Shown here piece after piece: positions 6,550 to 55,017 of a DNA stretch of 64,000 bases. Source of the DNA: Chloroflexota bacterium (GTDB lineage Bacteria; Chloroflexota; UBA11872); NCBI GenBank assembly GCA_965198285.1, contig OZ240251.1, positions 3,445,752-3,509,751 of the forward strand. The letters run 5' to 3'. A program made the position numbers and the translations under genes. Below the pieces are notes generated by a model. That model saw only the letters and a list, made by a program, of their open reading frames with translations. It ran no database searches and had not been told where the DNA came from. The number at the start of each line of letters is the position of its first letter. Position 1 is the stretch's first letter.

Positions 6550-6755
6550 ACGCTTTACCCTCGACACGTAGCAGCGCGAGTCACACTTCTACTCTAGCTT
6601 CGAAGCGTCCTAACCTTGCTCGACGACGGGAGCCCTCGACTCGCACCAAAGAGTCGACATCAAGACCGAGTACCGGTGAGGTCACGGCTCAGTACGCTTT
6701 GGCTTACTCTGGCGTCTCCGGGCTGCCACCGGTACGCCGACCCAATAGCACCGCA

Positions 6756-6938
6756 ATGAACGACTCGATCATCGTTGGCGGCGCCGCCGCCGTGGTTGCA
6801 GCCGCGCTGGCCGCGGCGGCCAGCGTCGGGATCGGCCGCCAGACGGGCCAGCAGCACGACACCCAGGACGACTTAGCCGGACGCATGGCCCGAGACCTGA
6901 TGGTCGTCTGTGACCTGCTGGCCGACCGCTTGGCCTAA
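6756..6938 (+). CDS. small membrane protein, truncated paralog of 11324..11794
   Basis: MNDSIIVGGAAAVVAAALAAAASVGIGRQTGQQHDTQDDLAGRMARDLMVVCDLLADRLA(stop). The nucleotide sequence and protein are collinear with 11324... The TAA here replaces AAG in the paralog, and conserved but frame-shifted codons continue to about 7060. Confidence 0.3.
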   Translation: MNDSIIVGGAAAVVAAALAAAASVGIGRQTGQQHDTQDDLAGRMARDLMVVCDLLADRLA

Positions 6939-10972: not shown

Positions 10973-11323
10973 GTCTCCCGCGTCAGGTCATGCGTGACGA
11001 CAACCTAAGAAACCTATCATAGGCATATCAGCTATACAAGAGGCTGCATGCATAGGTTCGGAAAACAGAACTACAGTAGAAATGCAGGAAAAGTCAATGC
11101 TGATGTCTAAAGTTCAGGCAATGTTACTAACCAACCTAAAGAGCGATGCTGGTCTTCGATCCCAGCGGGCCAGTGTTGTACACCATAAGGCCAGTCTCAC
11201 ACCACATCACAACCTCAAGCCTAAGAATCCGTCGTGCGGCGTCCGACCACTCATCCCAACATCGCAGGCGTCCCTCAGCAACCCGGTGCGGCAGCTGCGC
11301 TTCGCGTCTAGAATCACGCTGCG

Positions 11324-11794
11324 ATGAACGAATCGATAATCTTGGGATTCGCCGCCTCAGCCGCTGCGGCCGCCTTGGCCGCGGCGGCCAGCGTATGGAT
11401 CGGCCGCCAGATGGGACGCCAGCGCACCAGCGAGGACGACTCAGCCGGGCGCATGGCCCGCGACCTGATGGTGGTCAGCGACCTGCTGGCCGACCGGCTG
11501 GCCAAGATCTGGCAGGCGGGAGACGGCCCGACCTCAGGCATGGGTGACAGCGACGCGGTCTACCACCACGTACGCGAATCCACCGAGACGATCCTTCGCC
11601 AGGCCGGCGCGTCGGCCAAGACCGCCCTGGCCGTCGGCGCGCTGACGGCCAAGCACGTTCGGCCTGGACCCATCGCAGGTGCCGACGGCGAACAACCGCG
11701 GCCCGGACCCGCGCGCTGGGCCGGCGACAGTCCCTCTGCGCGGCCCAATACCGCCCAGCGCGCCGGAGAGACCGAACCTCCGTCTAGTCGGTGA
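11324..11794 (+). CDS. small membrane protein (full-length paralog of 6756..6938)
   Basis: MNESIILGFAASAAAAALAAAASVWIGRQMGRQRTSEDDSAGRMARDLMVVSDLLADRLAKIWQ... It has an N-terminal TM helix and then an amphipathic segment. The true C-terminus is uncertain, because the tail is low-complexity and the ORF overlaps the next gene. Confidence 0.35.
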   Translation: MNESIILGFAASAAAAALAAAASVWIGRQMGRQRTSEDDSAGRMARDLMVVSDLLADRLAKIWQAGDGPTSGMGDSDAVYHHVRESTETILRQAGASAKTALAVGALTAKHVRPGPIAGADGEQPRPGPARWAGDSPSARPNTAQRAGETEPPSSR

Positions 11795-12920
11795 TGGCGA
11801 TTTCGTATTGAGCGATGGCGTCTTCGTTCACGCCAACGCCCAGGCCGGGACGCGTGGGAACGGGCAGATAGCCGTCGGCGTCGATACGCAGCGGCTCGTC
11901 CACGATTCCGCCCAGTTGCTGGTAGTGCTCAACGGTGCGATACGGCTCGTCCAGGATGAACTCCATGTACGGGCAGTTGGGAATGCAAACGCTCAACTGC
12001 ATGTGCGCCGCGATACCCAATCCCGTCACACCGTGATGCGGCACGAACAGCCGTCCGGCGAACTCGGCCGCCGCGGCAATCTTGCCGAATTGCGACAGCG
12101 CCTCGCAGTTGGCGCAGGTATCGGGCTGCAGGATGTCGTAAGCGCCCACCCGGATCATCTCCATGAATTCGGGCATTCCCACGTTGCCCTCGCCGCCGGC
12201 GATCGCGATGTCGGTTTCGGCCGTTAGTCGCGCGATGGCTTCGAAGTCGTGCCGCGGAAGCGGCTCCTCCAGCCAGTACACCCCCAGCTGTTCCAGCTCG
12301 CGCGCCTCCGCCAGGGCCCGCCCGTAGTCCCAGGCCGGGCGGTGGTCGCCGGACGAGCCGCCGGCCAGGTTCGCGTCCACCATGATCACCATGCGGTCGC
12401 CCACCGCGTCGCGCACCGCCGCCACCAGAGCCACGTCCTCCGCCAGCGTCGGAAACGCCGTGCGCAGCTTGATCGCCGTGAAGCCCTGCTCCAGGTAGCG
12501 CAGCGCATCCTCGGCCCGCTGCTCCGGCGTGGCCGCCACGATGGTGCTGGCATAGGCGCGCACCCGTGTCTCGCGGTAGCCCCACAGGCGGTGTAACGGC
12601 TGGCCGGCCGCCTTTCCGATGATGTCGCAGAGCGCCATGTCCACCAGGAACGACCCGGCCCGCCGCAGTACCTCGGCGTGTCGCCCCAGCGCATGCGGGT
12701 CCTGGCCGATCAGGCCCGGAGCCACCACATCGCGGATCGTAGCGCCGCTTCGCTGGTCACCAATACCCCAGCCGGTCAGCCCCTCGTCCGTCTCCACCTT
12801 CACGATCAACGCCGCGCGCGAATACTCCTTCTGGCCCGGTCGTCCCCAGGCATGGAAATACGGATGCGGATGCGGGACATCCACCAGGCGGACCGTGATA
12901 TCAGTGATCTTCATGGCCAT
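11784..12920 (-). CDS. enolase-superfamily enzyme (mandelate racemase / muconate lactonizing enzyme family)
   Basis: 378 aa. It has the TIM-barrel metal ligand pattern (…MVDAN…, LEEPL, …ILQPD…) and the N-terminal capping domain typical of the mandelate racemase / muconate lactonizing enzyme family. Confidence 0.7.
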   Translation of the reverse strand: MAMKITDITVRLVDVPHPHPYFHAWGRPGQKEYSRAALIVKVETDEGLTGWGIGDQRSGATIRDVVAPGLIGQDPHALGRHAEVLRRAGSFLVDMALCDIIGKAAGQPLHRLWGYRETRVRAYASTIVAATPEQRAEDALRYLEQGFTAIKLRTAFPTLAEDVALVAAVRDAVGDRMVIMVDANLAGGSSGDHRPAWDYGRALAEARELEQLGVYWLEEPLPRHDFEAIARLTAETDIAIAGGEGNVGMPEFMEMIRVGAYDILQPDTCANCEALSQFGKIAAAAEFAGRLFVPHHGVTGLGIAAHMQLSVCIPNCPYMEFILDEPYRTVEHYQQLGGIVDEPLRIDADGYLPVPTRPGLGVGVNEDAIAQYEIAITD

Positions 12921-12972
12921 GCCTTTACGACGGCCGGCGATCGCGATGTCTTAGGCGTTCGCCGGGAAATAC

Positions 12973-13740
12973 CTATTGCCGTAAGTGTTTCAGCGCCTCG
13001 AACTCCGCCATGCCGCCCATCGAGATATACCCCTTTTCGCTGCCCGCGCTGATGAACGTGCAGCCGGCCGCGACCCACTTCTCGACCTGCTCGACGTTGC
13101 CGGCGGCAATGCCCGGCGCCTTGCCGTGCTTCTGGCAGGCTTCGATCATGCGCATGACGGCTTCGTCGTGTTCGGCCGAGTCGCGGGCGAAGCCAATCGA
13201 GTTCGCCAGGTCGGCGGGACCCAGCCAGCAGCCGTCGATGCCGTCCACGGCCATGATGTCGTCGGCGTTCTCGATGGCTTCCTTCGATTCCAGCTGGATC
13301 GCCACAAAGGCTTGGTCGTTGAAACTGTCGATGTAGTCTGGACCGTAGACGCTGGCGCCGCCCGCGCCGTTGGAACGCCCACCGGCCGGCGGGAACCGTG
13401 AGGCAAAGGCCGCCGCCTCGGCCTGCTCAACCGTGTCCACCATCGGCACGATGATGCCCAGCGCGCCTTCGTCCAGCAGCCGCCCGATCTCGTCGTATCG
13501 GTTGACCAGGGCGCGCGCAATGGGAATCGAGCCGCCCGCGCGAACCGCCATGAACGCCAGCATGGACGAGTAGCGGTCCCAAGTGCCGTGCTGGTTATCG
13601 ATCAGCACCCAGTCGAACCCCATGCTCGCCAGCATCTCGGCCGGAAACGGGACGCCCAGGCCGCAGCCGACCCCAAGGGCAACCTTGCCCTGGTCCATTC
13701 GTTGCTTTGCCGTATTCGTAATCACGAGTTCCTGCTCCAT
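12973..13740 (-). CDS. HpcH/HpaI-family aldolase
   Basis: ORF 12973..13797. The block GKVALGVGCGLGVPFPAEMLASMGFDWVLIDNQHG matches the 2-keto-3-deoxy-acid aldolase (HpcH/HpaI) N-terminus. The start is probably the internal MEQELV. Confidence 0.6.
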   Translation of the reverse strand: MEQELVITNTAKQRMDQGKVALGVGCGLGVPFPAEMLASMGFDWVLIDNQHGTWDRYSSMLAFMAVRAGGSIPIARALVNRYDEIGRLLDEGALGIIVPMVDTVEQAEAAAFASRFPPAGGRSNGAGGASVYGPDYIDSFNDQAFVAIQLESKEAIENADDIMAVDGIDGCWLGPADLANSIGFARDSAEHDEAVMRMIEACQKHGKAPGIAAGNVEQVEKWVAAGCTFISAGSEKGYISMGGMAEFEALKHLRQ

Positions 13741-13853: not shown

Positions 13854-14519
13854 TCAGCCCCGCTTGACGCCGATCCCGACTCCGTCGCCCACCTGCACGA
13901 TCGTCGAATCAAGCTGAGGGTGATCCAGGAACGCCCGATTGAACTCCCGGATGATCGGCGTCCACTGACGCGGACGGTTCGGGTCGTCGGTCTCCATGGC
14001 CGCCTGGCCGCCCCACAGGAGATTGTCGACACAAACGACCCCGCCTGGACGCAGCCGCTCGATAACCGCCTCCAGGTACGCGGGGTAGTCGTCCTTATTC
14101 GCGTCGATGTACGCAAAGTCGAACGGTCCGGGAACGTCTGCCAGCAAGTCCAGCGCCGGGCCGCAGCGCAACTCAACTCGCTCGGCCACCCGTTCGTGCA
14201 TCAGGTGCTCGCGGGCGCGCTGAAGGATCTCGCCATCGATGTCCAGGCAGATCAAGCGGCCGTCGCGCGGCAGCGCGCCGGCGATCCAGGTCGCCGAATA
14301 CCCGAGATTGGTACCGATCTCCAGGGCCGTGCGGGCGCCGCAGGCGCGCACCAGCGTCGCAATCAGCCGCGCCGACTCGCGTTCCGTAATCGGTTCGCGG
14401 TCCTTTTCGGCCTCTCGTTCGATTCGAGCCTGCGCCCCGCTGATCGCGGGATGCACGTCGCGCAAATATGCCCAGTCACGGGCTGGTCGGTCAGGATCCT
14501 GGCGTCGGCGTGCAGACAT
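13854..14519 (-). CDS. class I SAM-dependent O-methyltransferase (family 3, caffeoyl-CoA OMT-like)
   Basis: ORF 13854..14696, with the real start likely MSARRRQD at 14519. It carries LEIGTNLGYSATWIA (motif I) and DFAYIDANKDDY…GGVVCVDNLLWGG. It abuts the downstream aldehyde dehydrogenase stop. Confidence 0.65.
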   Translation of the reverse strand: MSARRRQDPDRPARDWAYLRDVHPAISGAQARIEREAEKDREPITERESARLIATLVRACGARTALEIGTNLGYSATWIAGALPRDGRLICLDIDGEILQRAREHLMHERVAERVELRCGPALDLLADVPGPFDFAYIDANKDDYPAYLEAVIERLRPGGVVCVDNLLWGGQAAMETDDPNRPRQWTPIIREFNRAFLDHPQLDSTIVQVGDGVGIGVKRG

Positions 14520-14526
14520 TTCTGGC

Positions 14527-16017
14527 TCAGTCCCAGGGGTCGCGGCCGTCGGACGACCTCGGCCAGCGCGAGACGACGACTTTCGGATCGGTAAAGAACC
14601 GCACGGCGTCGCCGGCCTGTCCGTGCAGATCCCCAAAGAACGACGCCTTGCGCCCCGCAAACGGGAAAAACGCCATCGGGGCGGCGACCCCGACATTCAC
14701 GCCCACGTTCCCAATGTTGACGCCCGAAACGAACTCTCTCGCGGCGGGTCCGCTGCTCGTGTAGATCGAGGCGGCGTTTCCAAACGGGCTGGCCTCAATC
14801 ATGTTCATCGCCTCCCGCAGCGTTCCGACCCGCTGCAGGCTGACCACTGGACCAAACACCTCTTCCTGCGAGATCCGCATCTCCGGCGTCACCTCGTCAA
14901 CCACCGTCGGGCCGACCCAGTAGCCATTGGGCAAACCCTCGGCGGTTGCGCCGCGGCCGTCAGCCACCATCCGCGCGCCTGCTGAAGCTGCATCGTCGAG
15001 CGTAGCCAGAATTCGATCGCGAGAGTCCTGCGAAATGACCGGACCCATTCCGACGTCCGGGTCCAGCCCGTCGCCCAGGCGCAAGGCCTGCGCGGCGGCC
15101 GTCAGCCGGTCGCTGAATTCTGAGTACACGTCGTTCGCCGCCACCACCACGGATCCCGCGAGGCAGCGCTGGCCGGCGCAGCCAAACGTGGAGCCCATCA
15201 GGTTCGGAATCGCAGCGTCCAGGTTGGCATCCGGCAGCACCACCAGGTGGTTCTTGGCCCCACCCTGCGCCTGCACCCGCTTGCCATGCTGCGCGGCCAG
15301 TTCGTAGATGCGCCGCGCAACCCGCGTCGTTCCGACAAATGAGACCCCTTGCACTCGCGGATCGGCGATTAGCGCCTCGGCCGTCTCCGCCCCACCGTGC
15401 ACCAGGTTGATGACGCCGGCCGGGAAACCGGCCTCGGCAATCAGGTCCATCATCCGCGCCTGGCTCAGCGGGGTCTGCGGCGACGGCTTGATGACGTAGG
15501 TGTTCCCGGTGGCTAGCGCGTAGGGCGCGAACCAGAACGGAACCATCGACGGGAAGTTGAAGGGCCCGATCTGGACGAACACGCCCATCGGTTCACGGAT
15601 CGACGTCTCATCGATGCCCGCGGCGATGTCGGCCGAGAAGTCGCCCATTTGCAGCGTCGGAATCCCGGCCGCGACCTCGATGTTCTCCAGGGTCCGGATC
15701 AGTTCGCCGCGCGCCTCTTCCAGCGTCTTGCCGTTCTCAATGGTGATGATGCGCGACAGGTCCTCGAACTGCTCCTCGACGAGGTGATGCAGCCGGAACA
15801 GCAATCGCCCGCGCTCTACCGCCGGCGTGGCCCGCCAACTGTCGAACGCATCATGGGCGGCCTGTACCGCGTCGGCCACGTCCTCGTCCGAAGCCATCGG
15901 CGCCTCGGCGACCACGCCACCCGACGCCGGGTTCGTGACTTCCGCGGCGTCGGTACCGCGCGCCGCCGTCCATTCCCCCGCGATCCAGTTCTGGAGCGTC
16001 TCCACTTCCGCGGCCAT
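14527..16017 (-). CDS. CoA-acylating methylmalonate-semialdehyde dehydrogenase-like aldehyde dehydrogenase
   Basis: ORF 14527..16425, but the ALDH homology begins at MAAEVETLQNWIAGEW (start 16017). The NAD site FVGTTRVARRIYE and the catalytic Cys region FGCAGQRCLAG are present, and the 496-aa length fits MmsA. The upstream 136 codons of the ORF are antisense filler. Confidence 0.75.
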   Translation of the reverse strand: MAAEVETLQNWIAGEWTAARGTDAAEVTNPASGGVVAEAPMASDEDVADAVQAAHDAFDSWRATPAVERGRLLFRLHHLVEEQFEDLSRIITIENGKTLEEARGELIRTLENIEVAAGIPTLQMGDFSADIAAGIDETSIREPMGVFVQIGPFNFPSMVPFWFAPYALATGNTYVIKPSPQTPLSQARMMDLIAEAGFPAGVINLVHGGAETAEALIADPRVQGVSFVGTTRVARRIYELAAQHGKRVQAQGGAKNHLVVLPDANLDAAIPNLMGSTFGCAGQRCLAGSVVVAANDVYSEFSDRLTAAAQALRLGDGLDPDVGMGPVISQDSRDRILATLDDAASAGARMVADGRGATAEGLPNGYWVGPTVVDEVTPEMRISQEEVFGPVVSLQRVGTLREAMNMIEASPFGNAASIYTSSGPAAREFVSGVNIGNVGVNVGVAAPMAFFPFAGRKASFFGDLHGQAGDAVRFFTDPKVVVSRWPRSSDGRDPWD

Positions 16018-16108
16018 GGCGCGATCCTCCCTGCCTGAAGCCTCAAGCGACGATACGACACCAGCCCACCATGCGTAGACTGTCGCGCTTCCCCGACGGC
16101 AGAACCCC

Positions 16109-17254
16109 ATGGTCGCACTCGCGCTTTCCACCCGCGATCCGGCAACGGCGATTGGCCAGCCGGTCGACGTTTTGGACACGCCGGCATTGGTCCTGGACCT
16201 CAGAGTCGTAGAGGCCAACATCGCCCGCACGGTCGAGATCGCCCAGGCCGCCGGCGCCCGGCTGCGGCCGCACATCAAGACCCACCGAATGCTCGCGGTG
16301 GCCCAACGCCAGATCGAGGCTGGCGCACAGGGCATCTGTTGCGCCAAGACCGGTGAGGCCGAGGTCTTCGCCGACGGCGGTGTCGATGACATCTTCATCG
16401 CCAACCAGGTCGTCGGCGCGGCCAAGATGCGGCGGCTACGAGCGCTCGCCGAGCGCGTCCGGCTCGCCGTGGGCGTCGATCACCCTGAGCAGATCGACTT
16501 GCTCAGCCAGGCATTTCGCGGGGCTGATCCCCTCGACATCAGCATCGAGATCGATGTAGGCCAGCGCCGTACCGGGGTGGTGGAAGACCATGAGGCCGTC
16601 GACCTGGCCCAGCGGATCCTGGATTCGCCGGGGCTCGCCTTGCGGGGCGTCTACACCCACGAAGGCCACGATTACGCGGCGCGGGATGATTCGGACCTGG
16701 CCGTGATCGCGGACCAGGCTCAACGCCAGATGCTGGATGCGGCGCAGGCCATCCGAGACGCCACAGGGGCAGCCTGCGAGGTGAGCATGGGATCGACGCC
16801 GTCGCTGTTCGCACGCAAGTTCCATGCGGGCATCGATGAACTGCGGCCGGGTACCGCCGTCTTCAACGACGGCTCGCACGCCAACTTCCTGGGCCACACC
16901 GACTGGTGTGCGGCCACCGTGCTGGCCACCGTGGTCAACCGGCCCGCGCCCGACCGGGTGGTGGTGGACGCCGGCGCCAAGGCTCTGACCTCCGATCGTC
17001 GTGGGCCCAGCATTCTGGAAAACAGCGGCTTCGGGATGGTCGTGGGCCGCCCCGAGGCCACCATCGTGAGTCTGTCCGACGAGCACGGCGTGCTTTCGGT
17101 GCCGGACGCCGATGCCTATGCCATCGGCGAGGTAATTCAGATCATCCCCAACCACATCTGCCCCTGCGTGAATCTGTACGACCATGCCTTCGTTGCGCGT
17201 GACGGAATCGTGCGGGAAGTGTGGGAAGTCTCGGCACGCGGGCAGAGTCAGTAG
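16109..17254 (+). CDS. alanine-racemase-fold PLP enzyme (DSD1 / D-serine or D-threo-3-hydroxyaspartate dehydratase-like)
   Basis: 381 aa. The PLP lysine context LRPHIKTHRM and the C-terminal beta-domain are present. It is divergent from the aldehyde dehydrogenase. Confidence 0.6.
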   Translation: MVALALSTRDPATAIGQPVDVLDTPALVLDLRVVEANIARTVEIAQAAGARLRPHIKTHRMLAVAQRQIEAGAQGICCAKTGEAEVFADGGVDDIFIANQVVGAAKMRRLRALAERVRLAVGVDHPEQIDLLSQAFRGADPLDISIEIDVGQRRTGVVEDHEAVDLAQRILDSPGLALRGVYTHEGHDYAARDDSDLAVIADQAQRQMLDAAQAIRDATGAACEVSMGSTPSLFARKFHAGIDELRPGTAVFNDGSHANFLGHTDWCAATVLATVVNRPAPDRVVVDAGAKALTSDRRGPSILENSGFGMVVGRPEATIVSLSDEHGVLSVPDADAYAIGEVIQIIPNHICPCVNLYDHAFVARDGIVREVWEVSARGQSQ

Positions 17255-17288
17255 CCAACGCCACTCGCCCGAAGGGAACTCGAGAGTC

Positions 17289-18056
17289 ATGGGAGCTCTT
17301 GACGGTCAAGCCGCCTTGGTCACCGGCGGCGGCAGCGGGATCGGCCGGGCGGCCGCCTTGGCGCTGGCGGGCGATGGCGCCGCGGTAGCCCTGGTCGGGC
17401 GGCGGCTCGCGCTCCTGGAAGAATCCGCCGGGATGATCAAGACGGCCAGAGGCCGCGTCCTGGTTCTGCCGGCCGACGTCGCCGATGCCGACGCGGTCCG
17501 TGAGGCCGTAGCCCAGACCGAAGCCGATTTCGGCCGTCTCGACATCCTGGTCAACAACGCCGGCGCTAACACCGCGTCGCGCAGCGTGGGCACAACCAGC
17601 GCCGACGACATCGAAACGCTGATGCGGATAAACGTGACCGGGCCCCTCACCCTGTCCCAGGCCGCGTTGCCGGGAATGCTGGAACGCGGCGGTGGGGTGA
17701 TCATCACGGTGGCGTCGTACTCGGTCGTAAGCCCCGGGCCGCCTGGCGGAACGGCCTACAGCGCCTCCAAGGCGGCCGTGGTGAGCCTGATGAAATGCGT
17801 GAACGCCGAGTACCGCAACCGCGGTATCCGGGCTTGCATCATCTACCCCGGCGAGGTGAACACCGAGATGCTGGATGCCCGCCCGCTCGTACCCGACGCC
17901 ACCGCCCGCGCAACCATGAGCCACGCCGACGACCTGGCCCAGATCATCCTGCTCTGCGCCCGCATGCCGGCGCGAACGCTGGTTGAAGAGATCTACGTCC
18001 GCCCGACCCACCTGCGCAACATGCAAGCCGACATCGCAGCCGCGATGGAGTTTTAG
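17289..18056 (+). CDS. short-chain dehydrogenase/reductase (SDR), paralog 1
   Basis: ORF 17184..18056 with start MGALDGQAALVTGGGSGIGRAAA (TGxxxGIG), NNAG, and YSASKAAV (YxxxK). It is about 60% identical to 26491..27258. Confidence 0.75.
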   Translation: MGALDGQAALVTGGGSGIGRAAALALAGDGAAVALVGRRLALLEESAGMIKTARGRVLVLPADVADADAVREAVAQTEADFGRLDILVNNAGANTASRSVGTTSADDIETLMRINVTGPLTLSQAALPGMLERGGGVIITVASYSVVSPGPPGGTAYSASKAAVVSLMKCVNAEYRNRGIRACIIYPGEVNTEMLDARPLVPDATARATMSHADDLAQIILLCARMPARTLVEEIYVRPTHLRNMQADIAAAMEF

Positions 18057-18217
18057 CCGACGTCCAAACCTCTCAGCCGCAGCTGGCGCGAAGCTCCGGT
18101 CGTGGGTGAGCTTGCGTCGCGGGCGGCGCGCCGCGGCAGCGTAACGGGCGGTTGGGGGGATTGGATGGGGCTGAGGGCGTGTGCCGGGCGGCGGGATTTG
18201 GGTGGGGGTGAAGGGGG

Positions 18218-18286
18218 AGCTATCTCTCGCCAGCCGGCCCCCAGAGGGGGCCGGCTGGCGAGAGATAGCTTGGGCCGGATTTTTTT
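18218..18286 (+). terminator. 25-bp perfect inverted repeat followed by T7 run (possible intrinsic terminator for the SDR gene, or a structural repeat)
   Basis: AGCTATCTCTCGCCAGCCGGCCCCC-AGA-GGGGGCCGGCTGGCGAGAGATAGCT then TGGGCCGGATTTTTTT. The stem is unusually long, and the T-run is 9 nt from the stem, so this is not canonical. Confidence 0.35.
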
Positions 18287-18369
18287 GGCGGGTTGGCGAC
18301 GAAGGTTGGGGCTGTGAGGGGGCGGCAGGGCGGCGCTGGAAGGGCTGGGTGCGCGGACGTGGCGAGGGG

Positions 18370-18432
18370 GTGGGGTGGGGGCGTCGCGAGCGGAAGAGGC
18401 CGGTTTCAAACCGGCCCCTACGAAAGATGGGG
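18370..18432. repeat. flank repeat block A (left copy); right copy at 26049..26113
   Basis: GTGGGGTGGGGGCGTCGCGAGCGGAAGAGGCCGGTTTCAAACCGGCCCCTACGAAAGATGGGG compared with GTGGGGGGTGTTGGGCTGCGACCGGAAGAGGCCGGTTTGAAACCGGCCCGTACGAAAGAGGGGG. Both contain a GGCCGGTTT-N-AAACCGGCC hairpin. Confidence 0.6.
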
Positions 18433-18624
18433 AACAAGCGGGGGCCAGGCGTCAGGAAGGTGAGTAGGCGGATTAGGGGGGCGAGCATGGAGGGTCCGGG
18501 GGAGGGACTTGGGAAAGGGCGTCTCTAGTGTACACTGCATGGATACGAAGAGCAAGGGTGATAAGGGTAGTGAGTCATTTTGATGTCTCCATGCGGCCTG
18601 GTTGGGGGACAGACCTCGACCGGA

Positions 18625-19050
18625 GGACCCCTCACCGAATTCCGCCGGGGACGGCGGAGTCTGCCTCTCCCCTCGGAGAGGGTGAAGAGCCGGGCAGCGA
18701 CTGAGGAGCGTGGGGTGCGCTGGAGTTGGTTGCCCGGGGGACCCCTCACCGATTTCGGCCGAAGACGCCCGAATCTGCCTCTCCCCTTGGAGAGGGTGAA
18801 GAGCCGGGCAGCGACTGAGGAGCGTGGGGTGCGCTGGAGTTGGTTGCCCGGGGGGACCCCTCACCGAATTCCGCCGGGGACGGCGGAGTCTGCCTCTCCC
18901 CTCGGAGAGGGTGAAGATTGGGAGCCGCCACGTAGGACCGTGGTGGGTGCTCGGACGAGCCCTCACCGATTTCCGCCGAAGACGGCGGAATCCTTCGGCT
19001 AGCTCAGGACGGGTTCTGCCTCTCCCCCAGGCGAGGGGAGGATTGGCGGG
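18625..19050. repeat. ~114-bp tandem repeat, 3.8 copies, each unit carrying two hairpins (REP/MITE-like family)
   Basis: The unit is GGACCCCTCACCGAATTCCGCCGGGGACGGCGGAGTCTGCCTCTCCCCTCGGAGAGGGTGAAGAGCCGGGCAGCGACTGAGGAGCGTGGGGTGCGCTGGAGTTGGTTGCCCGGG. The hairpins are TTCCGCCG-NNNN-CGGCGGAA and CCTCTCC-CCTC-GGAGAGG. Related copies lie at 58.23 kb and 61.87 kb. Confidence 0.7.
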
Positions 19051-19127
19051 ATGTGGTTCGACTCGGGCCCATTCGACAGGCTCAGGGCAGGTTCTTCGAC
19101 GGACTCTGGCCCGGCTGACCATGAACG
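19048..19127. repeat. flank repeat block B (left copy); right copy at 26199..26255
   Basis: GGGATGTGGTTCGACTCGGGCC ... GGACTCTGGCCCGGCT(G/C)ACCATGAACGG is shared. The left copy has a 30-bp insertion between the two halves. Confidence 0.55.
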
Positions 19128-19329
19128 GTGGATGCGAGTACGTGGGCTCGGGTTGGTGGGGAGGTCGGGGTGACACTGGTGCGCTGGGATTGTTGGGTGC
19201 TGCTGGGTCCCGGCTGGGGACGCCGGGATGACGGGGGAAGTGCGCTCGGGATGCGGGCGTGGACGGGATGTGAGGTTGCGCTGGGTTTGATCATGGTGCT
19301 GGGTCCCGGCTGAAGACGCCGGGATGACG

Positions 19330-19455
19330 GGATGTGTTCAGTCGGTCGGGCCAATGTGTTCAGTTTTGGGGCGACTGTGTTCAGTTTTTGGCCCGATGTG
19401 TTCACTCTCCGGCCGAATGTGTTCACTTTGGCGAGGCAGGTGTTCAGTTTTCGGT
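19330..19455. repeat. iteron-like array 1: 6 x 21-22 bp direct repeats (consensus GGCCRAATGTGTTCAGTTTTNGG)
   Basis: The units start near 19331, 19354, 19376, 19396, 19417 and 19439. They are contiguous with no spacers, and the array is preceded by GACGCCGGGATGACGGG. Confidence 0.7.
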
Positions 19456-19497
19456 GGCGGGCGTTGGTTGGGGATCGGGGACGGCGGGATGACGGGG

Positions 19498-19615
19498 ATG
19501 TGTCCACTCTGTCAGGCCAATGTGTCCAGTTTTTGGCCCGATGTGTCAACTTTTCGGGCGAATGTGTCCAGTTTTTGCCGAAATGTGTCCAGTTTCCGGC
19601 CGAATGTGTGCGGTG
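19498..19615. repeat. iteron-like array 2: 6 x 21-22 bp direct repeats (variant core ATGTGTCCAGTTTT)
   Basis: The units start near 19499, 19519, 19541, 19562, 19584 and 19604. The array is preceded by GACGGCGGGATGACGGGG, so the two arrays form a higher-order duplication of about 170 bp. Confidence 0.7.
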
Positions 19616-20151
19616 AGGAAGGGAAGAGGGGAGAGCGGAGAGTAGCGAGAGGGGACAAATAGGGGACTGCCTGTGCGGGCTGGGTGCTTCGGGTGTGGTT
19701 CGACAGGCTCACCAGGGACGCAGGGTGCGCTGGGATCGATCATGGCGGTGGGTTCCCCTCCTTCGGCTAGCTCAGGACAGGCTTCGACAAGCTCAGGGAA
19801 GGCTCTCCAGGGACGCCGGGATGACGAGCGTGGTGGCAAGTGGTTGGTGGGTGGTGGGGAGTGGCTTGTGCCGAGGTCGGTTGTTGGGCTGCTGGAGTTT
19901 TGGGGCGAACCGGGGAACGGGGATGCCGGCAATGACATCACTGCCAGCAACGCGATCAGTGCGTGCGGTGCTGGCAGTGCAGGCAACGCTGGCAGGGATT
20001 CCGGAGTCGGAGAGGCAGAGGCGGACAGGGACATGTCTTAGGCGAATGTCCGAAGCAGCATGTGGTTCAATGGCTGGGGCGTACTGTCGGCATTCCCAGG
20101 TCACAGGGTCCGCGCAGCCTGGGCCATCGTGCAGGAGTCGTGTGGGACAAT

Positions 20152-20166
20152 CGTGTGCTAAGCACA
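20152..20166. promoter_or_regulatory. 15-bp palindrome GTGTGCT-A-AGCACAC 23 nt upstream of the 20189 start (candidate operator)
   Basis: Perfect 7-bp arms, with a direct repeat TCGTGTG just upstream. Confidence 0.3.
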
Positions 20167-20188
20167 CCGCGCCTAATCTCTAGGGATA

Positions 20189-21799
20189 TTGCCTGAGACT
20201 ATGGTCATTAACGATCTAAACGCACTCCTGCAAGCTAAAACTAAGATTGAAAACCTCCTCGAGAATGGTGATACGACTGAGGCTTTTGATTTTGCAGACA
20301 ATCTTTGCGCAGGATCGGGCCAAGAGTCCCTTGTGAGAAACCTGCGTGCATGCACATACGCTGACGTAGGCGAACAGAACAATCAGATCTCTCTAATCGA
20401 AGAGGCAATTCGCATTTGGCGTTCGGCCGGGGAAGAAATCACAACTCGCGAGTCGTACAACTTGGCAAGCTCTATGTTGAGCATTTGGAGTCTCTATGAA
20501 GGGCAACACGGATTTGCCGATACTTGGCTGGAACAACGCGACTATCTGCGCGATTCTAGGAAGATATTCTCAGAAATCGCTAACGACGAGGGAGCTGAAA
20601 CAGAATTCCGGTTAAAGGCGCTAACTGACGCTGGAAACTCTTACGACAATGTCGGACGGCACACGGACGCCATCGATTGCTTCGATCGTGCACTCGCGCT
20701 CGACTCTTCATTTGCAATGGCGACGGGCAATCGCGGCCTGGCCCTCCTCTACGCATCGCCTTACATGAGGGATTTTGAGCGTGAGATTGAGCTACTCGCG
20801 GCAGCAGACCTTGATCACGCGATAAGTAATTCGGAAAGCGTGCTAAAGCATGGCGGAGAGTCGGCGCTAGAGAGCTTTCGCCGGCAGCGCTCTGCAATAC
20901 CTGACTTGCCGAGTGCATCTGATGAATCTGAACCGATGCCACCTAGGTTTACCGATCCTCATTTGACCTGGTGCCTGCGCGAAGGGCTCTTTCTGCACGT
21001 AGCGCCGTGGCTGGTGGGTAGCAATGCGTCGGTTCTCGACCCAATTTTCTTCAGGCGCATAATAACGAGTCTCGGCGCAAGGGACATAACCCTCACCAAT
21101 GAGATCATTGACGCATTTAATACGATTAAGCAGGACTTTGTGTCGGCTCGCTATTTGGTGTGGGCATCGAGTGAGCCTAGCAGTCCAATCTGGACGCATG
21201 CTCAGTCGATCAGCTCGCACGTATCATTTTTGGATACTCTCGATTACGGCAGGTGGGGCGTTCGAACTGGTACTGCAATTCAGGCATTCAAGGCGGCTGT
21301 AGATGTTCTGGATAAGAGTGCGTCCTTTGCACACTTGTACTTCGGCACCAAACAGGCAGCTCGTCGTGTATCGTTTCGTAGCCTACCTTACGAGGACAGC
21401 GCACGTCGAAACGTTGCGGCAGCGTTTGAGAGTGCTTTGAACGGAAAGTCGCCTAACCGAGGGTTGTCGGCCTTAATGGATCTGAGCTACGAACTTGATG
21501 ACGAGGGATCATCGCCTCTAGCACTTAATGTAAACATGCGACACGCTGCCACGCATCGGTTCTTGACTGTTCATTCTGAGATGGCTCCGGAATCGTCGGA
21601 CTGGAGTGAGCGAATCAACTGGCGAGATCTCATCGACGAGTCTTTGTGTCAATTACGACTTGCGAGGTCTGCAATATTCTATTTAGCGCAGATGATTGAC
21701 ATGCAAGAGGATGTCAAGATTGCTACGGAAGCTGGAATGTCGGTGACCATGGCGCTGCCATATGCAAGGCTAGACACTGACTTGCTGGAGGCCGAATAG
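20189..21799 (+). CDS. TPR-repeat protein with C-terminal HEPN-like R-x4-H motif (candidate LA2681-type HEPN RNase / Abi-like protein)
   Basis: 536 aa. The N-terminal two-thirds holds several TPR-like helical pairs (for example AIDCFDRALALDSSFAMATGNRGLAL). At the C-terminus ...ALNVNMRHAATHRFLTVH... gives R-x4-H, the HEPN catalytic signature, in a predicted all-helical region. GC is about 45-50% against ~68% for the flanks, and there is a clean ATG with no overlap. Confidence 0.45.
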   Translation: MPETMVINDLNALLQAKTKIENLLENGDTTEAFDFADNLCAGSGQESLVRNLRACTYADVGEQNNQISLIEEAIRIWRSAGEEITTRESYNLASSMLSIWSLYEGQHGFADTWLEQRDYLRDSRKIFSEIANDEGAETEFRLKALTDAGNSYDNVGRHTDAIDCFDRALALDSSFAMATGNRGLALLYASPYMRDFEREIELLAAADLDHAISNSESVLKHGGESALESFRRQRSAIPDLPSASDESEPMPPRFTDPHLTWCLREGLFLHVAPWLVGSNASVLDPIFFRRIITSLGARDITLTNEIIDAFNTIKQDFVSARYLVWASSEPSSPIWTHAQSISSHVSFLDTLDYGRWGVRTGTAIQAFKAAVDVLDKSASFAHLYFGTKQAARRVSFRSLPYEDSARRNVAAAFESALNGKSPNRGLSALMDLSYELDDEGSSPLALNVNMRHAATHRFLTVHSEMAPESSDWSERINWRDLIDESLCQLRLARSAIFYLAQMIDMQEDVKIATEAGMSVTMALPYARLDTDLLEAE

Positions 21800-21981: not shown

Positions 21982-24900
21982 CTAGACGGCCACCTGGGCT
22001 TCGGTGTCGCCGGCGGTGAGGGCGTTCATGTAGGCGAGGATTAGGGCTTTGGTGCGGTAGTGGTTGAAGGCGGCTTGGTCCTGGCGTTGGATGATGGGGA
22101 AGGTGGAGAGGATGTAGGCCGCGTCTTCGCGGGTGAGGCCGTAGAGGTGGAAGTAGAGGGCGTCGAGGCGGGCTCGGAGGTGGCGACGTTCTTCGGGGTC
22201 CCAGGGGAAGGGTGGGCCGTGGTGGCCTAGGTCGCGGGCGAAGGGGGCCATGTCGTGGGCGGTGTAGGTGAGGCGGAGGACGTGGTGGTGGACGAGGTCG
22301 GCGGCGGTGCGGTCGCCGAAGCGGCGGTGATAGGTGGCTGGAGGAAGGACCGGGAGTTGCTCGACGGTGTACCAGGTCAAATGCTGACCCTGGACTTTCT
22401 GGCGGGCAACGAAGTCGAACGCGAACGAGTTCAGGGAGGCGAGCCAGAAGCAGGCATTTTCCTTATAAGTGGCGACGTCAGCGTCGGGCATCAGCAGCGG
22501 CAGTGTGTGACCGGCGCCTACGCGCGGAATGATTGAGGCGATGACTGCCCGGACATTCGTTGGCGAAGTTACGTCCTTGAACGCCACTGCCCAACTCAAT
22601 TCATCGGGCCACTTGATGTCTTGCTCACTAACCCAGAACTGAGGAGTCGGTAGCCAATATGGATCGCCGTGCTCTTCGGCTGTGGCCGGTCTTGGCTGGG
22701 CGGGTCGGTGGAGATTCTTCCGGTTGACAACCACGCTGGCGGCGCGGTGGTCAAACGCCTGTGTCATTTTCCCCTCATAGAGAGGGACGTAATGATCAGC
22801 GCCACGCTTCCAACGATTGGCTTGGACGGGGTAGAAGCCCTCTTCCTGCAGTTCGGACGTGGTTCGGAAAAGGTGAGATGAATTGGCCATGTCCAGCATG
22901 CGGACGTAGCGGACGGGCCAAGCGCGGCGTTCGTCGTCGCCTGAACGGTCCACCAGGACAGGATGGTCCTGGTAGATACGGCGAGTGATGTCGGCGTCGC
23001 GGCGGGTGCGGAAGACGGGGGCGGTGCCGGTGTTGGGGTTGACGCGGGCGAAGTCGTCGGGGCTGAGGGTAAAGGCTCGGTCAGGGTCGGTGATGGTGGT
23101 GTCAGGCAGGAAGAAGCCGCAGCGGGTCTCGGGGAACGTGCGCCCGGGTCCGCCGATGATGAGGGCGCAGAACTTGAAGCGGGAGTCGATGTCGGGGAAG
23201 AAAGGCGGCAATTCGGTTCCGAGGCGACGGTTTTCGAAGTCAAAGATTCCGGCGACGCGGCCGGTGGTGGAGACGGACTGGAAGAAGCGGGCGGCGGTGC
23301 GGTCGGCGTAGATGCCGGAGGGGGTGAGCAGGCCGACGAGGCCGTTGGGTTTGACGAGGCGCAGGGAGCGTTCGACAAAGAGGGAGTAGAGGTTGATGTC
23401 GCCACCGCCCAACAACGGGTAGTGGCCGGAGGCGCGGATGACCTGGCCGAGGCGGTCGGCGCGGGCCTTGGCCTTGTCGAAGGCCACGGCCAATGGAGCG
23501 CCATGTTCGCGCAGGCGCTTGATGCCTTCGTGGCGGGCGGCGGCAGTGGCGGCACGGGCGAGATCTGGGTCCCTGGTGGCAAACCACTCGACTTCCTGGA
23601 GCTTGATGCGGTCCCAAGGGGGATTGCCGATGACAGCGTCGAAGCCGCCCTCGGGGGTTTGGTTTTGCCAGTGACGCCAGACGCCGGGGAAGGCGGCTTC
23701 CCAGTGGAGGAAGGATTCCTGGTCGGCTACAGAGTGGGCCTCGGCCAGGCGCTCGCGAAAAGCGGTTGAACGATTGTGCGCTCGGTCGCCCGGCGGACGC
23801 GCCAACTGCTCGTAAGCGCGGCTGGCGTCGGCCCCCAGCGTCTCGGCTATTGGCGCTTCGAATACGGCACGCTGGCGGACCTTGAGGCCGGCGGTGAGCC
23901 AGCGGAGGCCGGTGAGGGTGTCGAGGAAGCTGCGGAGGTCGGCAGTGGCGGACTCGACGGCCTGGAAGAGCGACTGGGACTGGTGGACTTCCGACACGTC
24001 GGCATCGGAGAGCTGTTCGATCCGGCGCATGCCCTGGGCGGCGTTCTCGATGCCTTGCAGCGCGCTGGACACGAACATGGGCACGTCCAGCCGCTGCAAG
24101 TCCGCCGTGGCGTCGGCGCTGTGCAGCCCCAGCAACGAATCTCCGCAGCGTAAATGGTGATCCAAGAACGATAGGGGCGCGCCGACCGTGAAGCTATGGA
24201 GCCAGAGGGAGACCTTTGCAAGTTCGACGGTGAGCGAGTTCTTGTCCACCCCGTAGATGCAGCGCTTGAGCACCAAGCGGCGGATGATGGCCTGGTCGCT
24301 CAACTGGGTCTCGTAGACCTTCCAGCCGGACGCGTGAGCGCGATGCAGGATGTCAGAGCGAATGGCGGCGATACGGTCAAGCAAGGGCGAGTGGTAAGGG
24401 TCGTCTTCGGGCAGCCAGTCGGGGATGGCGGGGACGAACTCAATCAGGTCGGCGACATAGTCGGTCAGGAAATCAACGGCGGTGACTAGGAAATGGCCGC
24501 TGCCCATCGCCGGGTCCAGCACCTTGAGATCGAGCACGGCCTGGGCGGGGTCCAGGCGGGCTAGCTCGGCGCGGCGCTCGGCTTTGGGGCGGCGGTCGCC
24601 CTTCAATTCCTTGGCCCGGGCCTCGAAGGCGTCCAGGCGTTCCTCGATGAGCGGCTTGAGGGTCTGGTCGACTATGAGGTCCACGAGATCCTGCGGGGTG
24701 TAGAAGCTGCCGCTGTCCTTGCGGGCGTAGGGGTTGGGGCGGACCGTCACCGCCCCCTGAGCGTCCAGCACCGGTTCCTGTTCCAGCAGACGTTCGTAGA
24801 TGGATCCGAGTTGCTGGACGGACATGTCGCGGTAGTTGACGTAGCGGCGCTGGCCGTCGGTTTGGGTGTGGCTGAGGTCGTAGATGATGTCGGCGATGAC

Positions 24901-26004
24901 GTTGTCAGAGACGCGGACCCTGCCAAGAAGTTTGGAGGCGTCCTCGGCAAACAGGCCGCCGTTGTAGGGCGGCAGGCCGACGTCCGGATCTCCCTGATCA
25001 ATCTGCCGGAAGAGTTCCTTCAGGTGATTCCAGTAGCTGGCAGCTGTGTCCGAGAAGGTGTCGTTGCGGGCTTTGCGCTCGGCTACGTCGTCGCGTACAC
25101 GCTTGCGGAGGCCGTAGTCGTCGTAGGCGGCGTCGTTAACGGGCAGGAGGCCGCGGTCTTCGGCGTAGAGGACGAAGAGCAGGCGGTAGAGAAAGATGAG
25201 GGCGGCTTCGCGGATTGCGGGCATGGGCCGGTCGGTGGCATCGGCCAGGGCCTGGAGGAGGCGGGGAAAGACGCGCTGGAAGACGACGCCGGCGAGGCTC
25301 TGGGCGACGCGCTGTTCGTAACGACGGCCCTGGTCTAGAGCGGTCTCCAGGAAGGTGACGGCGGCGCCGGGGCGGCGCAGGAAGGCGGAGCGGCGAAAGA
25401 GAAGGTGGAAGGTGCGGAGGGCGTCCTGGTCGTCGGCTTGGAGGAGGGCCTGGAGGTCGGCTTCGTAGTAGGCGGTGGCGCGGGGGCGAGTTTTCTGGTC
25501 GTAGAGACGCCAGACGGCACCGTTGGTGAGGATCCCCCAGCGGAGGTCGCCGTCGGTGACGGTTTCGGCTTCGCGGAGGTAGCGAAGGATCTGGGCGTGG
25601 GGTGAGGAGGCCTGGAGTCCCTTGCCGGAGCCGCGGGTGTCGAGGGGACGACGGAAGCGTTTGAGCTCGGCGACGGCGAGGGCTTCGAGGAATGAGCTGG
25701 CGTTGGAACCGGTGGCGCGGGTCTTGGCCTGGGCGTCGGGGAAGAGGAGCAGGTCGGGGATATTTTCGCCGCCGCTGGTCGTCTGCTGGGAGAGGTCGTC
25801 GGTCCAGCCGAGGAGTTGGAGCAGGGGACGAATGAGGTCCTGCTCGGTCTGAGTCTCGTTGGGGTTGTGGGCGGTGGGGAAGTCCTGGAAGAGGCGGCGG
25901 GCTTCGTCACGGAAGGTGTTGTAGGCGCGGCGCTGGGTTTGGCGCTCGGGGGTTTGGCGGATGCCGTCGGTGAGGAAGTACTGGGTGAATAGGTGGCCGG
26001 GCAT
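21982..26004 (-). CDS. Type IIG (MmeI-like) restriction-modification enzyme: PD-ExK nuclease + gamma-class N6-adenine methyltransferase + target-recognition region
   Basis: 1340 aa. The N-terminus ENIPDLLLFPD...LAVAELKRF resembles the MmeI-family D...ExK nuclease core. Motif I is VLDPAMGSGHFLV (about aa 515) and motif IV is GNPPW (about aa 790), in gamma order. A C-terminal ~550 aa region ends with an Eco57I/MmeI-like tail (YVPLYEGKM.QAFDHR ... LYGL...YIL.TFPI). No separate methylase gene is nearby. Confidence 0.7.
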   Translation of the reverse strand: MPGHLFTQYFLTDGIRQTPERQTQRRAYNTFRDEARRLFQDFPTAHNPNETQTEQDLIRPLLQLLGWTDDLSQQTTSGGENIPDLLLFPDAQAKTRATGSNASSFLEALAVAELKRFRRPLDTRGSGKGLQASSPHAQILRYLREAETVTDGDLRWGILTNGAVWRLYDQKTRPRATAYYEADLQALLQADDQDALRTFHLLFRRSAFLRRPGAAVTFLETALDQGRRYEQRVAQSLAGVVFQRVFPRLLQALADATDRPMPAIREAALIFLYRLLFVLYAEDRGLLPVNDAAYDDYGLRKRVRDDVAERKARNDTFSDTAASYWNHLKELFRQIDQGDPDVGLPPYNGGLFAEDASKLLGRVRVSDNVIADIIYDLSHTQTDGQRRYVNYRDMSVQQLGSIYERLLEQEPVLDAQGAVTVRPNPYARKDSGSFYTPQDLVDLIVDQTLKPLIEERLDAFEARAKELKGDRRPKAERRAELARLDPAQAVLDLKVLDPAMGSGHFLVTAVDFLTDYVADLIEFVPAIPDWLPEDDPYHSPLLDRIAAIRSDILHRAHASGWKVYETQLSDQAIIRRLVLKRCIYGVDKNSLTVELAKVSLWLHSFTVGAPLSFLDHHLRCGDSLLGLHSADATADLQRLDVPMFVSSALQGIENAAQGMRRIEQLSDADVSEVHQSQSLFQAVESATADLRSFLDTLTGLRWLTAGLKVRQRAVFEAPIAETLGADASRAYEQLARPPGDRAHNRSTAFRERLAEAHSVADQESFLHWEAAFPGVWRHWQNQTPEGGFDAVIGNPPWDRIKLQEVEWFATRDPDLARAATAAARHEGIKRLREHGAPLAVAFDKAKARADRLGQVIRASGHYPLLGGGDINLYSLFVERSLRLVKPNGLVGLLTPSGIYADRTAARFFQSVSTTGRVAGIFDFENRRLGTELPPFFPDIDSRFKFCALIIGGPGRTFPETRCGFFLPDTTITDPDRAFTLSPDDFARVNPNTGTAPVFRTRRDADITRRIYQDHPVLVDRSGDDERRAWPVRYVRMLDMANSSHLFRTTSELQEEGFYPVQANRWKRGADHYVPLYEGKMTQAFDHRAASVVVNRKNLHRPAQPRPATAEEHGDPYWLPTPQFWVSEQDIKWPDELSWAVAFKDVTSPTNVRAVIASIIPRVGAGHTLPLLMPDADVATYKENACFWLASLNSFAFDFVARQKVQGQHLTWYTVEQLPVLPPATYHRRFGDRTAADLVHHHVLRLTYTAHDMAPFARDLGHHGPPFPWDPEERRHLRARLDALYFHLYGLTREDAAYILSTFPIIQRQDQAAFNHYRTKALILAYMNALTAGDTEAQVAV

Positions 26005-26490
26005 TAGAGAAGGACGTTTTCGGTACGGGGAAGCATCGCATGTTTGGGGGTGGGGGGTGTTGGGCTGCGACCGGAAGAGGCCGGTTTGAAACCGGCCCGT
26101 ACGAAAGAGGGGGCGGGGACGGCGGGGGCGTCACGACCGGAAGGTGGGGGGCGGGTTCTCCGAGGGACGCCGGGGCGGCTCACCACGAACGGGGGGCTGG
26201 GGATGTGGTTCGACTCGGGCCGCCGAGGGACTCTGGCCCGGCTCACCATGAACGGATAGAGAAGACGGGCGGGTCGGGGGCAACGGCCCTGCGAAGGGCA
26301 GGACGGGAGGGCGCGGGGTGGGGCAAAGCGTCTGGATTGACCGAAGCGCCGTGGGCCGTAGATGACATGATGGGTGTGGTCGAGTCACGCAGAGATACGG
26401 TGAGCGACGTCGGGACGGGGCGGACGGGTCGCCGTAACTCAATGTGACCCAATACTGAGAATCCAGCAGCCGCGAAGGGCAGGTGCGCCG

Positions 26491-27258
26491 ATGAAACAGC
26501 TGAATGGTCAAGTCGCGTTGGTGACCGGCGCCGGAACCGGTATCGGTCGCGCCAGCGCAATTGCGCTGGCCCGCGAAGGAGCGGCGGTGACGCTGGTTGG
26601 GCGGCGTCAGTCCTTGCTCGATGAGACTGCGGCCACGATTCGAGGTGCGGGCGGCACGGCGCTGGCTCTCCCGGCCGACATCACCGATCCCGAAGCCGCG
26701 CGGGCCGTGGTGGCGAAAACCGAGTCCGAGTTCGGGCGTCTGGACGTCCTGGTTAACAACGCCGGCGGCGGCAGCCGGTCACGCAGCGTGCGAACGATCG
26801 AAGCAGACGATTTCGAGGGCGTGCAGCGGCTGAACGTGACGGCCCCGATGGTGCTCACGCAGGCGGCGCTGCCGGGGATGCTGGACCGTGGGACCGGCAC
26901 CGTCATCACCATTTCGTCGTACGCCGCCGTCACTGCCGGCCCGATGGCCGGCGTGGCCTATGGCGCCGCGAAGGCGGCCGTGGCGAGCGTGATGAAGAGC
27001 GTCAACAACGAACTCCGCAGCCACGGCCTGCGGGCCTGCACGATTTTCCCGGGCGAAGTGGACACCCCGATCCTGGAACGCCGCAAGCTGGTCCCGGACG
27101 CTGCGGCGCGCGCCACGATGATGCAGTCCGAAGACCTGGCCGAAATCGTCCGCCTCTGCGCCTGCCTGCCCGGCCGCACGCTGATTGAAGAGGTCTACGT
27201 GCGACCGACCCACCTGCGCGACCTGAGCGCCGACACCGAGGCGGCGCTAGAGACCTAG
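26491..27258 (+). CDS. short-chain dehydrogenase/reductase (SDR), paralog 2
   Basis: 255 aa. It has TGAGTGIGRA, NNAG, and YGAAKAAV, and is collinear with SDR paralog 1 over its full length. Confidence 0.75.
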   Translation: MKQLNGQVALVTGAGTGIGRASAIALAREGAAVTLVGRRQSLLDETAATIRGAGGTALALPADITDPEAARAVVAKTESEFGRLDVLVNNAGGGSRSRSVRTIEADDFEGVQRLNVTAPMVLTQAALPGMLDRGTGTVITISSYAAVTAGPMAGVAYGAAKAAVASVMKSVNNELRSHGLRACTIFPGEVDTPILERRKLVPDAAARATMMQSEDLAEIVRLCACLPGRTLIEEVYVRPTHLRDLSADTEAALET

Positions 27259-54934: not shown

Positions 54935-55017
54935 GGTTGGGGTTCCTTGGCGGGGTGTTGCCGCACTATGGCGGGGCGGGGTTTCGGAGTCAATCGGCGA
55001 GCGGTTTGTGCGCACGT

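Follow-up and report, generated by a model that had tools for sequence, protein, structure and literature searches.

In Borrelia burgdorferi, the genes bbe02 and bbq67 limit transformation (PMC4466376). Their products methylate one strand of about 100% of GNAAYG and CGRKA sites, and this methylation affects the Borrelia transcriptome (bioRxiv 10.1101/375352). Another described group of enzymes, the MmeI family, is defined by BLAST similarity over the whole length (E < 1e-20), and its published members range from 908 to 1184 amino acids (PMC2731913). Here we analyze the gene at positions 21982-26004 of a 64,000-nucleotide (nt) stretch of contig OZ240251.1 from a Chloroflexota bacterium (the window), for which an earlier reading of the sequence, the original prediction, had proposed a solitary, unusually long MmeI-like Type IIG enzyme. 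We find that its product is very probably a stand-alone, single-chain Type IIG restriction-modification (R-M) enzyme from a large family whose best-studied relatives are B. burgdorferi BBE02 and BBQ67.

The open reading frame (ORF) is present and intact at the predicted position and length:

21982..26004, minus strand: complete gene for a 1340-amino-acid nuclease-methylase-recognition fusion; ATG start, stop codon at 21982-21984

The guanine-plus-cytosine (GC) content of its 1340 codons is 0.69/0.45/0.82 at the three codon positions in a window of about 65% GC, which marks the ORF as a real coding gene. Dozens of homologs 1336-1419 amino acids long can be aligned with residues 1-1340, and no frameshift or truncation is seen; the gene is therefore not a pseudogene, an outcome that the original prediction had named as fatal to its proposal.

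A BLASTP search aligned the protein (E 6e-84) with a 1271-amino-acid protein encoded on plasmid lp25 of B. burgdorferi N40, residues 42-1329 of the query matching residues 45-1265 of the subject. From its plasmid and position, we take this protein to be BBE02. The PD and ExK elements, GILxNGxVWRLYD, motif I, and GNPPW are all in register, and the layout of the Borrelia protein is alike, with D87, E124, K126, motif I D506, and motif IV N767 in a chain of 1271 residues. The window protein is thus collinear with the BBE02/BBQ67-like family over its full length, including the nuclease motif. BBE02 (lp25) and BBQ67 (lp56) are likewise single polypeptides with no separate methylase, of similar size and with similar spacing between motifs I and IV. 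In contrast, the organisms and their habitats differ, the recognition segments are unrelated in sequence, and the Borrelia enzymes are backed by genetic and methylome evidence, whereas the window protein is known from sequence alone.

The protein can be divided into the following parts, some of them predicted from models:

25435..26004, minus strand: predicted N-terminal PD-(D/E)xK nuclease, about residues 1-190; D84 codon at 25753-25755, E113-L-K115 codons at 25660-25668
24730..25434, minus strand: helical spacer ("arm") from nuclease to methylase, about residues 191-425; all-helical in the model, with a predicted local distance difference test score (pLDDT) of about 60-89
23005..24729, minus strand: gamma-class N6-adenine methylase, about residues 426-1000; motif X GSFYTP at residues 432-437, motif I at 24484-24522, motif IV at 23614-23628
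23725..24447, minus strand: helical insertion between motifs I and IV, about residues 520-760; the largest "extra" block relative to MmeI (+177 residues)
22405..23004, minus strand: TaqI-like target-recognition domain, about residues 1001-1200; contains the hypervariable residues 1090-1200 (22405-22737)
21985..22404, minus strand: C-terminal helical bundle, residues 1201-1340; helical, pLDDT about 87-97, strongly conserved, collinear with the BBE02 type to residue 1329

Nuclease and methylase therefore lie on one chain, as expected of a Type IIG enzyme. The nuclease motifs read I-P-D84-L-L-L-F and A-E113-L-K115. Motif I, VLDPAMGSGHFLV, spans residues 495-507 (DPAMGSG at 497-503) and precedes motif IV, GNPPW, at 793-797. 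D84, E113, K115, D497-G503, and N794-W797 are invariant across 93 full-length homologs, and neither the catalytic triad nor motifs I and IV vary in a divergent set that extends down to 23% identity and includes cultured plasmid homologs from Pannonibacter (49%) and Celeribacter (47%) as well as the Borrelia lp25 protein. These results bear out the N-terminal PD-ExK motif, the gamma-class order, and the N6-adenine methylase joined to a C-terminal recognition region in one polypeptide that had been proposed for the gene.

Around the nuclease motifs, secondary structure predicted from a model of residues 1-1200 consists of a helix (50-64), strands (70-72, 85-87, and 110-114), a helix (135-150), and two further strands (156-160 and 164-169), with D84 at the start of the second strand and ExK on the third. 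This order is the PD-(D/E)xK pattern described for MmeI (PMC2731913). The model as a whole has a pLDDT of 58.6 and a predicted template modelling score (pTM) of 0.38; it is usable over the first 560 residues or so, with blocks in residues 1-200 mostly at 60-90. A Foldseek search with it returned only meaningless matches (E >= 0.26); the model is too poor for a fold search, and the nuclease fold stays a prediction. Sub-threshold Pfam matches in the nuclease region recur across the family, to MmeI_N in 12 of 13 members and to HSDR_N in 10 of 13. In the arm, MmeI_hel matches residues 270-352 (E 1e-4) and is seen, under its cut-off, in 13 of 13 members, and residues 130-510 are spanned by alignments to the PADLOC Type IIG and DrmMI models.

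The methylase is recognized by Pfam Eco57I (E 3.4e-19) and N6_Mtase (E 6e-7), and over its core by the PADLOC models DrmMI (9e-95) and REase_MTase_IIG (1.1e-67). The Eco57I-type tail of the original prediction is imprecise: the Pfam match is central, at residues 582-803. An AlphaFold2 model of residues 860-1340, the last 481, is better (pLDDT 79.6, pTM 0.83), and Foldseek matches it to CamA, M.BseCI, and M.TaqI (E 2.5e-8 to 3e-6), and also to BrxX/PglX, BpuSI, and MmeI. In this model, the last 481 residues are the C-terminal half of the methylase, a TaqI-like recognition domain, and the helical bundle; with these accounted for, no additional domain of the kind that had been suggested for the extra sequence was found. 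CamA, M.BseCI, and M.TaqI share the fold of the Eco57I-type module (PF07669) and TaqI-like domain (PF12950) with the window protein but lack its N-terminal nuclease and arm. In distant members, Pfam TaqI_C gives a significant match at the collinear position (P0224, E 2.8e-14); in the window protein itself, Pfam does not detect it. Sequence and profile searches of the PDB found no solved structure related beyond motif I, where the matches are PglX/BrxX only.

The length of the protein is ordinary for its family. More than 5,900 homologs came up in a database search; the 120 best range from 1296 to 1719 amino acids and mostly match over the full length, at 64-86% identity, which again indicates that the gene is intact and that 1340 residues is typical. 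A profile of the N-terminal region (residues 1-210), searched against 1.84 billion cluster representatives, retrieved 2327 of them; the complete sequences among the best 150 are all 1312-1415 amino acids long. With the Borrelia BBE02 type at 1271 residues, the claim that the protein is about 400 residues longer than canonical members does not hold: 1340 amino acids is a normal length for a very large family (about 1310-1415 residues) and not that of an oversized MmeI. The gene is typical of a known family of which thousands of members have been sequenced, so nothing about its size has to be specially explained.

The figure of 400 residues arises from comparison with MmeI, whose landmarks are D70, E80, K82, motif X at 312, motif I at 359, and motif IV at 480 in a chain of 919 residues (PMC2582602). 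Counted between these published landmarks, the window protein has 421 residues beyond MmeI:

Before the catalytic D: +14
From D to K: +19
From K to motif X (the helical arm): +87
From motif X to motif I: +16
From motif I to motif IV: +177, the largest block, inside the methylase domain
After motif IV: +108

Outside the three large intervals, the additional 49 residues are scattered. The extra sequence had been placed between the nuclease and methylase and in the C-terminal region; the spacer and the part after motif IV do hold some of it, but the main block lies within the methylase, between motifs I and IV.

The 80 best related loci (59-80% identical to the query; 81 with the window) come from metagenome-assembled genomes of Chloroflexota, Dehalococcoidia, Latescibacterota, Nitrospirales, Acidobacteriota, Spirochaetia, Binatia, Rhodothermales, Entotheonella, and others. 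Judging from bin names and taxon lists, these are probably marine sponge symbionts. The spread of homologs over many phyla in such genomes fits the reported enrichment of R-M genes in sponge symbionts and their lateral exchange among them (PMC8163846). Gene GC roughly tracks the GC of the flanks across loci, which argues that most copies are not very recent arrivals. Homologs also occur on plasmids of cultured Pannonibacter, Sinorhizobium, Celeribacter, Pukyongiella, Tabrizicola, and Novosphingobium, at 47-49% identity over 95-100% of the query. NCBI labels close members "restriction endonuclease"; outside Borrelia, the family is large and apparently uncharacterized.

Variation within the family is concentrated in the recognition domain. 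Residues 1090-1200, about 110 amino acids, fall into 70 types at 85% identity among the 80 loci, while the scaffold around them is conserved; in 1379 of 3160 pairs, identity in this segment is 30 points or more below that of the remaining protein. This is the pattern expected of changing specificity. Given the diversity of the segment, the family could supply new Type IIG specificities, an idea made testable by the cultured, plasmid-borne homologs of Pannonibacter, Celeribacter, and Sinorhizobium. We also considered a shared specificity, or "password", among co-resident symbionts of different phyla, and rejected it on the same counts of types and divergent pairs.

A second variable site is the linker at the end of the motif I-IV insertion, residues 721-760 (23725-23844), where sequence entropy peaks and relatives carry low-complexity inserts of up to several hundred residues (e.g., P0002, P0008, and P0040). 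At query residues 737-745 or so (window about 23770-23795), the inserts are repetitive, as in the case of repeated "SLSLEGEGWGEGGSQPQ" and "TVRGEPPRSPS". In locus L001, a match to an element of the 5' leader (window 26140-26290) lies inside the gene (12347-12383). These observations suggest that the linker tolerates in-frame insertion of small repeat elements.

The gene stands by itself. Within about 13 kb on either side, the neighbors encode a GCV_T/DAO oxidase, an enolase-superfamily protein, HpcH aldolases, a small-molecule O-methyltransferase, an aldehyde dehydrogenase, two short-chain dehydrogenases, a sulfatase, an alcohol dehydrogenase, and others. In this interval there is no DNA methylase, specificity subunit, helicase, or DISARM or BREX partner, confirming that no stand-alone methylase or specificity gene is nearby, and PADLOC found no match among the neighbor genes of the window. 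We clustered ORFs from the 80 related loci and the window to test whether any neighbor is conserved, and none recurs in more than 11 of the 81 loci. The commonest are an AAA ATPase paired with a 1377-amino-acid NTPase, in 9-11 loci, and, in 6 loci, a Fic protein directly downstream.

The Fic gene occurs in six Dehalococcoidia loci (L014, L016, L025, L027, L029, and L062; at about 14053-15123). On the Pannonibacter plasmid p.BB_2 (L081), a phospholipase D family gene (11069-12184) lies directly downstream of the homolog, and on the Celeribacter plasmid pP73C (L082) a Fic gene lies upstream and an overlapping gene for an ATP-binding protein downstream (5735-6856 and 11059-13062). None of these accessory neighbors is universal.

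Several other explanations have to be weighed against a Type IIG enzyme of the BBE02/BBQ67 kind. The term MmeI-like suggests a true MmeI-family (Type IIL) member grown by insertions. The domain order is identical (PD-ExK nuclease, helical arm, gamma m6A methylase, C-terminal recognition domain), MmeI enzymes are also solitary, without a second methylase, and three features of that family (N-terminal PD-ExK, gamma motif order, no flanking methylase) are present. Weak matches to MmeI_N, MmeI_hel, and MmeI_Mtase recur in 12-13 of 13 members, MmeI_Mtase exceeds its cut-off in three distant relatives, and MmeI itself is among the fold matches of the C-terminal half. In the window protein, however, the three domains score 15.9, 23.4, and 18.4 bits, respectively, all below the gathering cut-off of 27, and Pfam gives no match to MmeI_TRD or MmeI_C. 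The spacing from D to ExK is 10 residues in MmeI versus 29 here, that from motif I to motif IV is 121 versus 298, and the published range of the family ends at 1184 residues. MmeI (5HR4) was not recovered by sequence or profile search of the PDB, and the whole-length similarity by which the authors define the family went undetected in indirect tests (the Pfam and PDB searches, with no direct BLAST against MmeI). Membership in the MmeI family is, in our judgment, highly improbable.

The protein could instead be a DISARM class 1 methylase of the DrmMI type, orphaned or with distant partners, that marks self DNA for a helicase/nuclease complex. Its top PADLOC match is indeed DrmMI (PDLC02643, E 9.2e-95, profile length 1347), further DrmMI models match, and DrmMI methylates one strand of an asymmetric site (ACACAG), as the window protein would by analogy. 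But the best-matching DrmMI stretch is limited to the methylase core, residues 410-797. What defines a class 1 DISARM system is that DrmA (helicase), DrmB (DUF1998), DrmC (PLD), and DrmD (SNF2) are encoded next to drmMI, and drmA, drmB, drmC, and drmD are absent from the window, including the 13 kb or so around the gene, and not conserved among the 81 loci. With the invariant PD-ExK triad also favoring a nuclease activity of the protein's own, we regard a DISARM role as very unlikely. A methylase of the BREX PglX type is effectively refuted. The only sequence matches in the PDB are PglX/BrxX around motif I, and PglX/BrxX are among the fold matches of the C-terminal half, but the NCBIfam BREX models give 18-36 bits where their cut-offs demand 400-900, and the PADLOC PglX match (E 1.7e-7) covers 27 residues of motif I only; with the partner genes absent and an N-terminal PD-ExK motif present, the best hits are not PglX proteins without nuclease similarity, the other outcome that the original prediction had guarded against. 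A Type ISP enzyme (LlaGI/LlaBIII) was rejected as well: Pfam, NCBIfam, and PADLOC scans detect no helicase domain, the spacer is all-helical instead, and the LlaBIII fold match is marginal (E 0.05). An orphan adenine methylase, for instance an epigenetic regulator with an inactive or repurposed nuclease domain, is unlikely, though it would suit a solitary gene amid metabolic genes, and the transcriptome effect of BBE02/BBQ67 methylation speaks for it. Set against it are the catalytic D, E, and K, invariant in the 93 close members and in divergent ones; the rapid diversification of the recognition segment, which is typical of defense enzymes and not of regulators; and the toxin-antitoxin and defense genes that adjoin family genes in many loci. 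For the Type IIG enzyme that we favor, the points that count against it are these: identity to the studied Borrelia enzyme is only 21%; we found no biochemical characterization of the window protein or of relatives more than 50% identical to it; its best single PADLOC match is DrmMI, a DISARM methylase, and not a Type IIG model; its recognition sequence, methylated strand, and cut position are all properties that we infer by analogy; and the evidence for the predicted nuclease fold consists of conserved motifs, predicted secondary structure, and Pfam matches that fall short of threshold.

By analogy with BBE02/BBQ67 and MmeI, a single recognition domain would read a short asymmetric site, and the methylase would use S-adenosyl-methionine to mark one adenine on one strand of host sites. 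The nuclease would then cut incoming DNA that is unmarked, with the arm holding it at a fixed distance from the site. The BBE02/BBQ67 data are the experimental anchor for this mechanism, which for the window protein itself we infer. Changes in the hypervariable segment may give new specificities, and this would explain the presence of at least two paralogs per genome in the lineage; two paralogs (L003 and L007) lie on one contig.

The gene sits in an island of about 8.4 kb (18.06-26.49 kb or so) flanked by two short-chain dehydrogenase paralogs. The features at its borders and within it are:

17184-18056 and 26491-27258, both plus strand: short-chain dehydrogenase paralogs, 59% identical over 211 aligned amino acids
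20189-21799, plus strand: HEPN_LA2681-TPR gene, 536 amino acids; TPR repeats and an LA2681-like HEPN domain (E 3e-30)
26073..26108, 5' leader: 36-nt element with the 19-bp palindrome GGCCGGTTTGAAACCGGCC at its centre, 69-104 nt before the ATG
18218-18270: perfect 25-nt inverted repeat
18620-18917: 114-nt tandem repeat, 2.6 copies
19332-19454 and 19498-19609: two 21-nt tandem arrays

The HEPN-TPR gene is convergent to the restriction gene and lies 182 nt from the stop codon of the latter. Its GC content is 53% versus about 65% in the surroundings, so it was probably acquired separately; it adjoins the restriction gene in none of the 80 related loci and has no PADLOC match. The 36-nt element, with its palindrome GGCCGGTTTSAAACCGGCC, occurs exactly twice in the window (0 copies expected by chance), in identical orientation. 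The second copy, at 18392-18427, is 7.7 kb away at the other end of the island, past both the HEPN gene and the repeat region. A pair of the palindromes also lies upstream and downstream of the gene in the related locus L003 (9906-9924 and 17158-17176), and the "far" copies of the window and L003 are more alike mutually than either is to the "near" copies. The element could serve as an operator, mark an island boundary, or be a repeat element.

The tandem and inverted repeats, and others besides them, belong to a non-coding, repeat-packed stretch of about 2 kb (18100-20180) that is G-rich on the plus strand. Short pieces of it recur near the homologs in L003, L006, and L007. An Rfam search with the 114-nt repeat units gave only sub-threshold whalefall-1 matches (21.5-24 bits versus a gathering score of 37). 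We searched 16400-20200 for a degraded second copy of the gene and found none. There is no tRNA near the island, and we found no promoter or terminator consensus. An 81-codon ORF (26004-26249) that overlaps the start codon was rejected as a gene: its codon-position GC is flat, its product is proline-rich, and the protein is not conserved save for partial matches in the closely related L003 and L007, where the nucleotide leader itself is conserved in both loci.

In 16 of the 80 related loci (L003, L008, L021, L024, L031, L033, L037, L046, L047, L049, L050, L056, L063, L065, L069, and L077), the last 70-490 nt of the gene are found again outside it, in one to four additional copies. The copies are always on the same strand as the gene, almost always downstream of it, and mostly 70-99% identical in nucleotides to the resident 3' end; that of L047 is detectable at the protein level only. 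L063 carries four, at 14854-15207, 15864-16025, 17140-17278, and 20570-20671. Between copies lie HEPN-MNT pairs (L063 and L049), a HigBA-like pair (L008), SIR2-like genes (L021 and L069), an AbiEii-like gene (L069), an ImmA-type peptidase (L077), and a TcmP/Gp37-like pair (L047), names that come from reading the sequences and not from Pfam scans. We noticed no recombinase in those inserted segments that we looked at, and in the window we found no displaced copy of the 3' end.

The pattern suggests repeated insertion at the conserved 3' end, or replacement as far as that end. A rather doubtful reading is that this end is an attachment site or recombination hot spot that accumulates small toxin-antitoxin and defense cassettes. 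The low-GC HEPN-TPR gene immediately 3' of the window gene could have arrived by the same route, though no duplicated 3' end survives there. If this is true, the restriction gene would also anchor a growing defense island through an undescribed route of insertion. The displaced copies with their defense cargo merit separate study.

The window gene also has an unusual base composition. At third codon positions it contains 63% C versus 20% G (skew -0.52), whereas its neighbors are near 0. Among homologs, this C bias appears only in the closest Chloroflexota and in Caldilineaceae (loci L001-L007, L063, and L077), so it is not a family trait, and ordinary metabolic genes elsewhere in the window share it. 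The change in GC skew near 18 kb was likewise rejected as a replication origin, since the strong skew is local to 18-26.5 kb. Over 18.0-26.5 kb the C bias spreads into the flanking non-coding DNA, and it recurs in two further minus-strand genes of the window, at 53915-55369 and 60941-61819, which encode an aldo-keto reductase and a metallo-beta-lactamase-fold protein.

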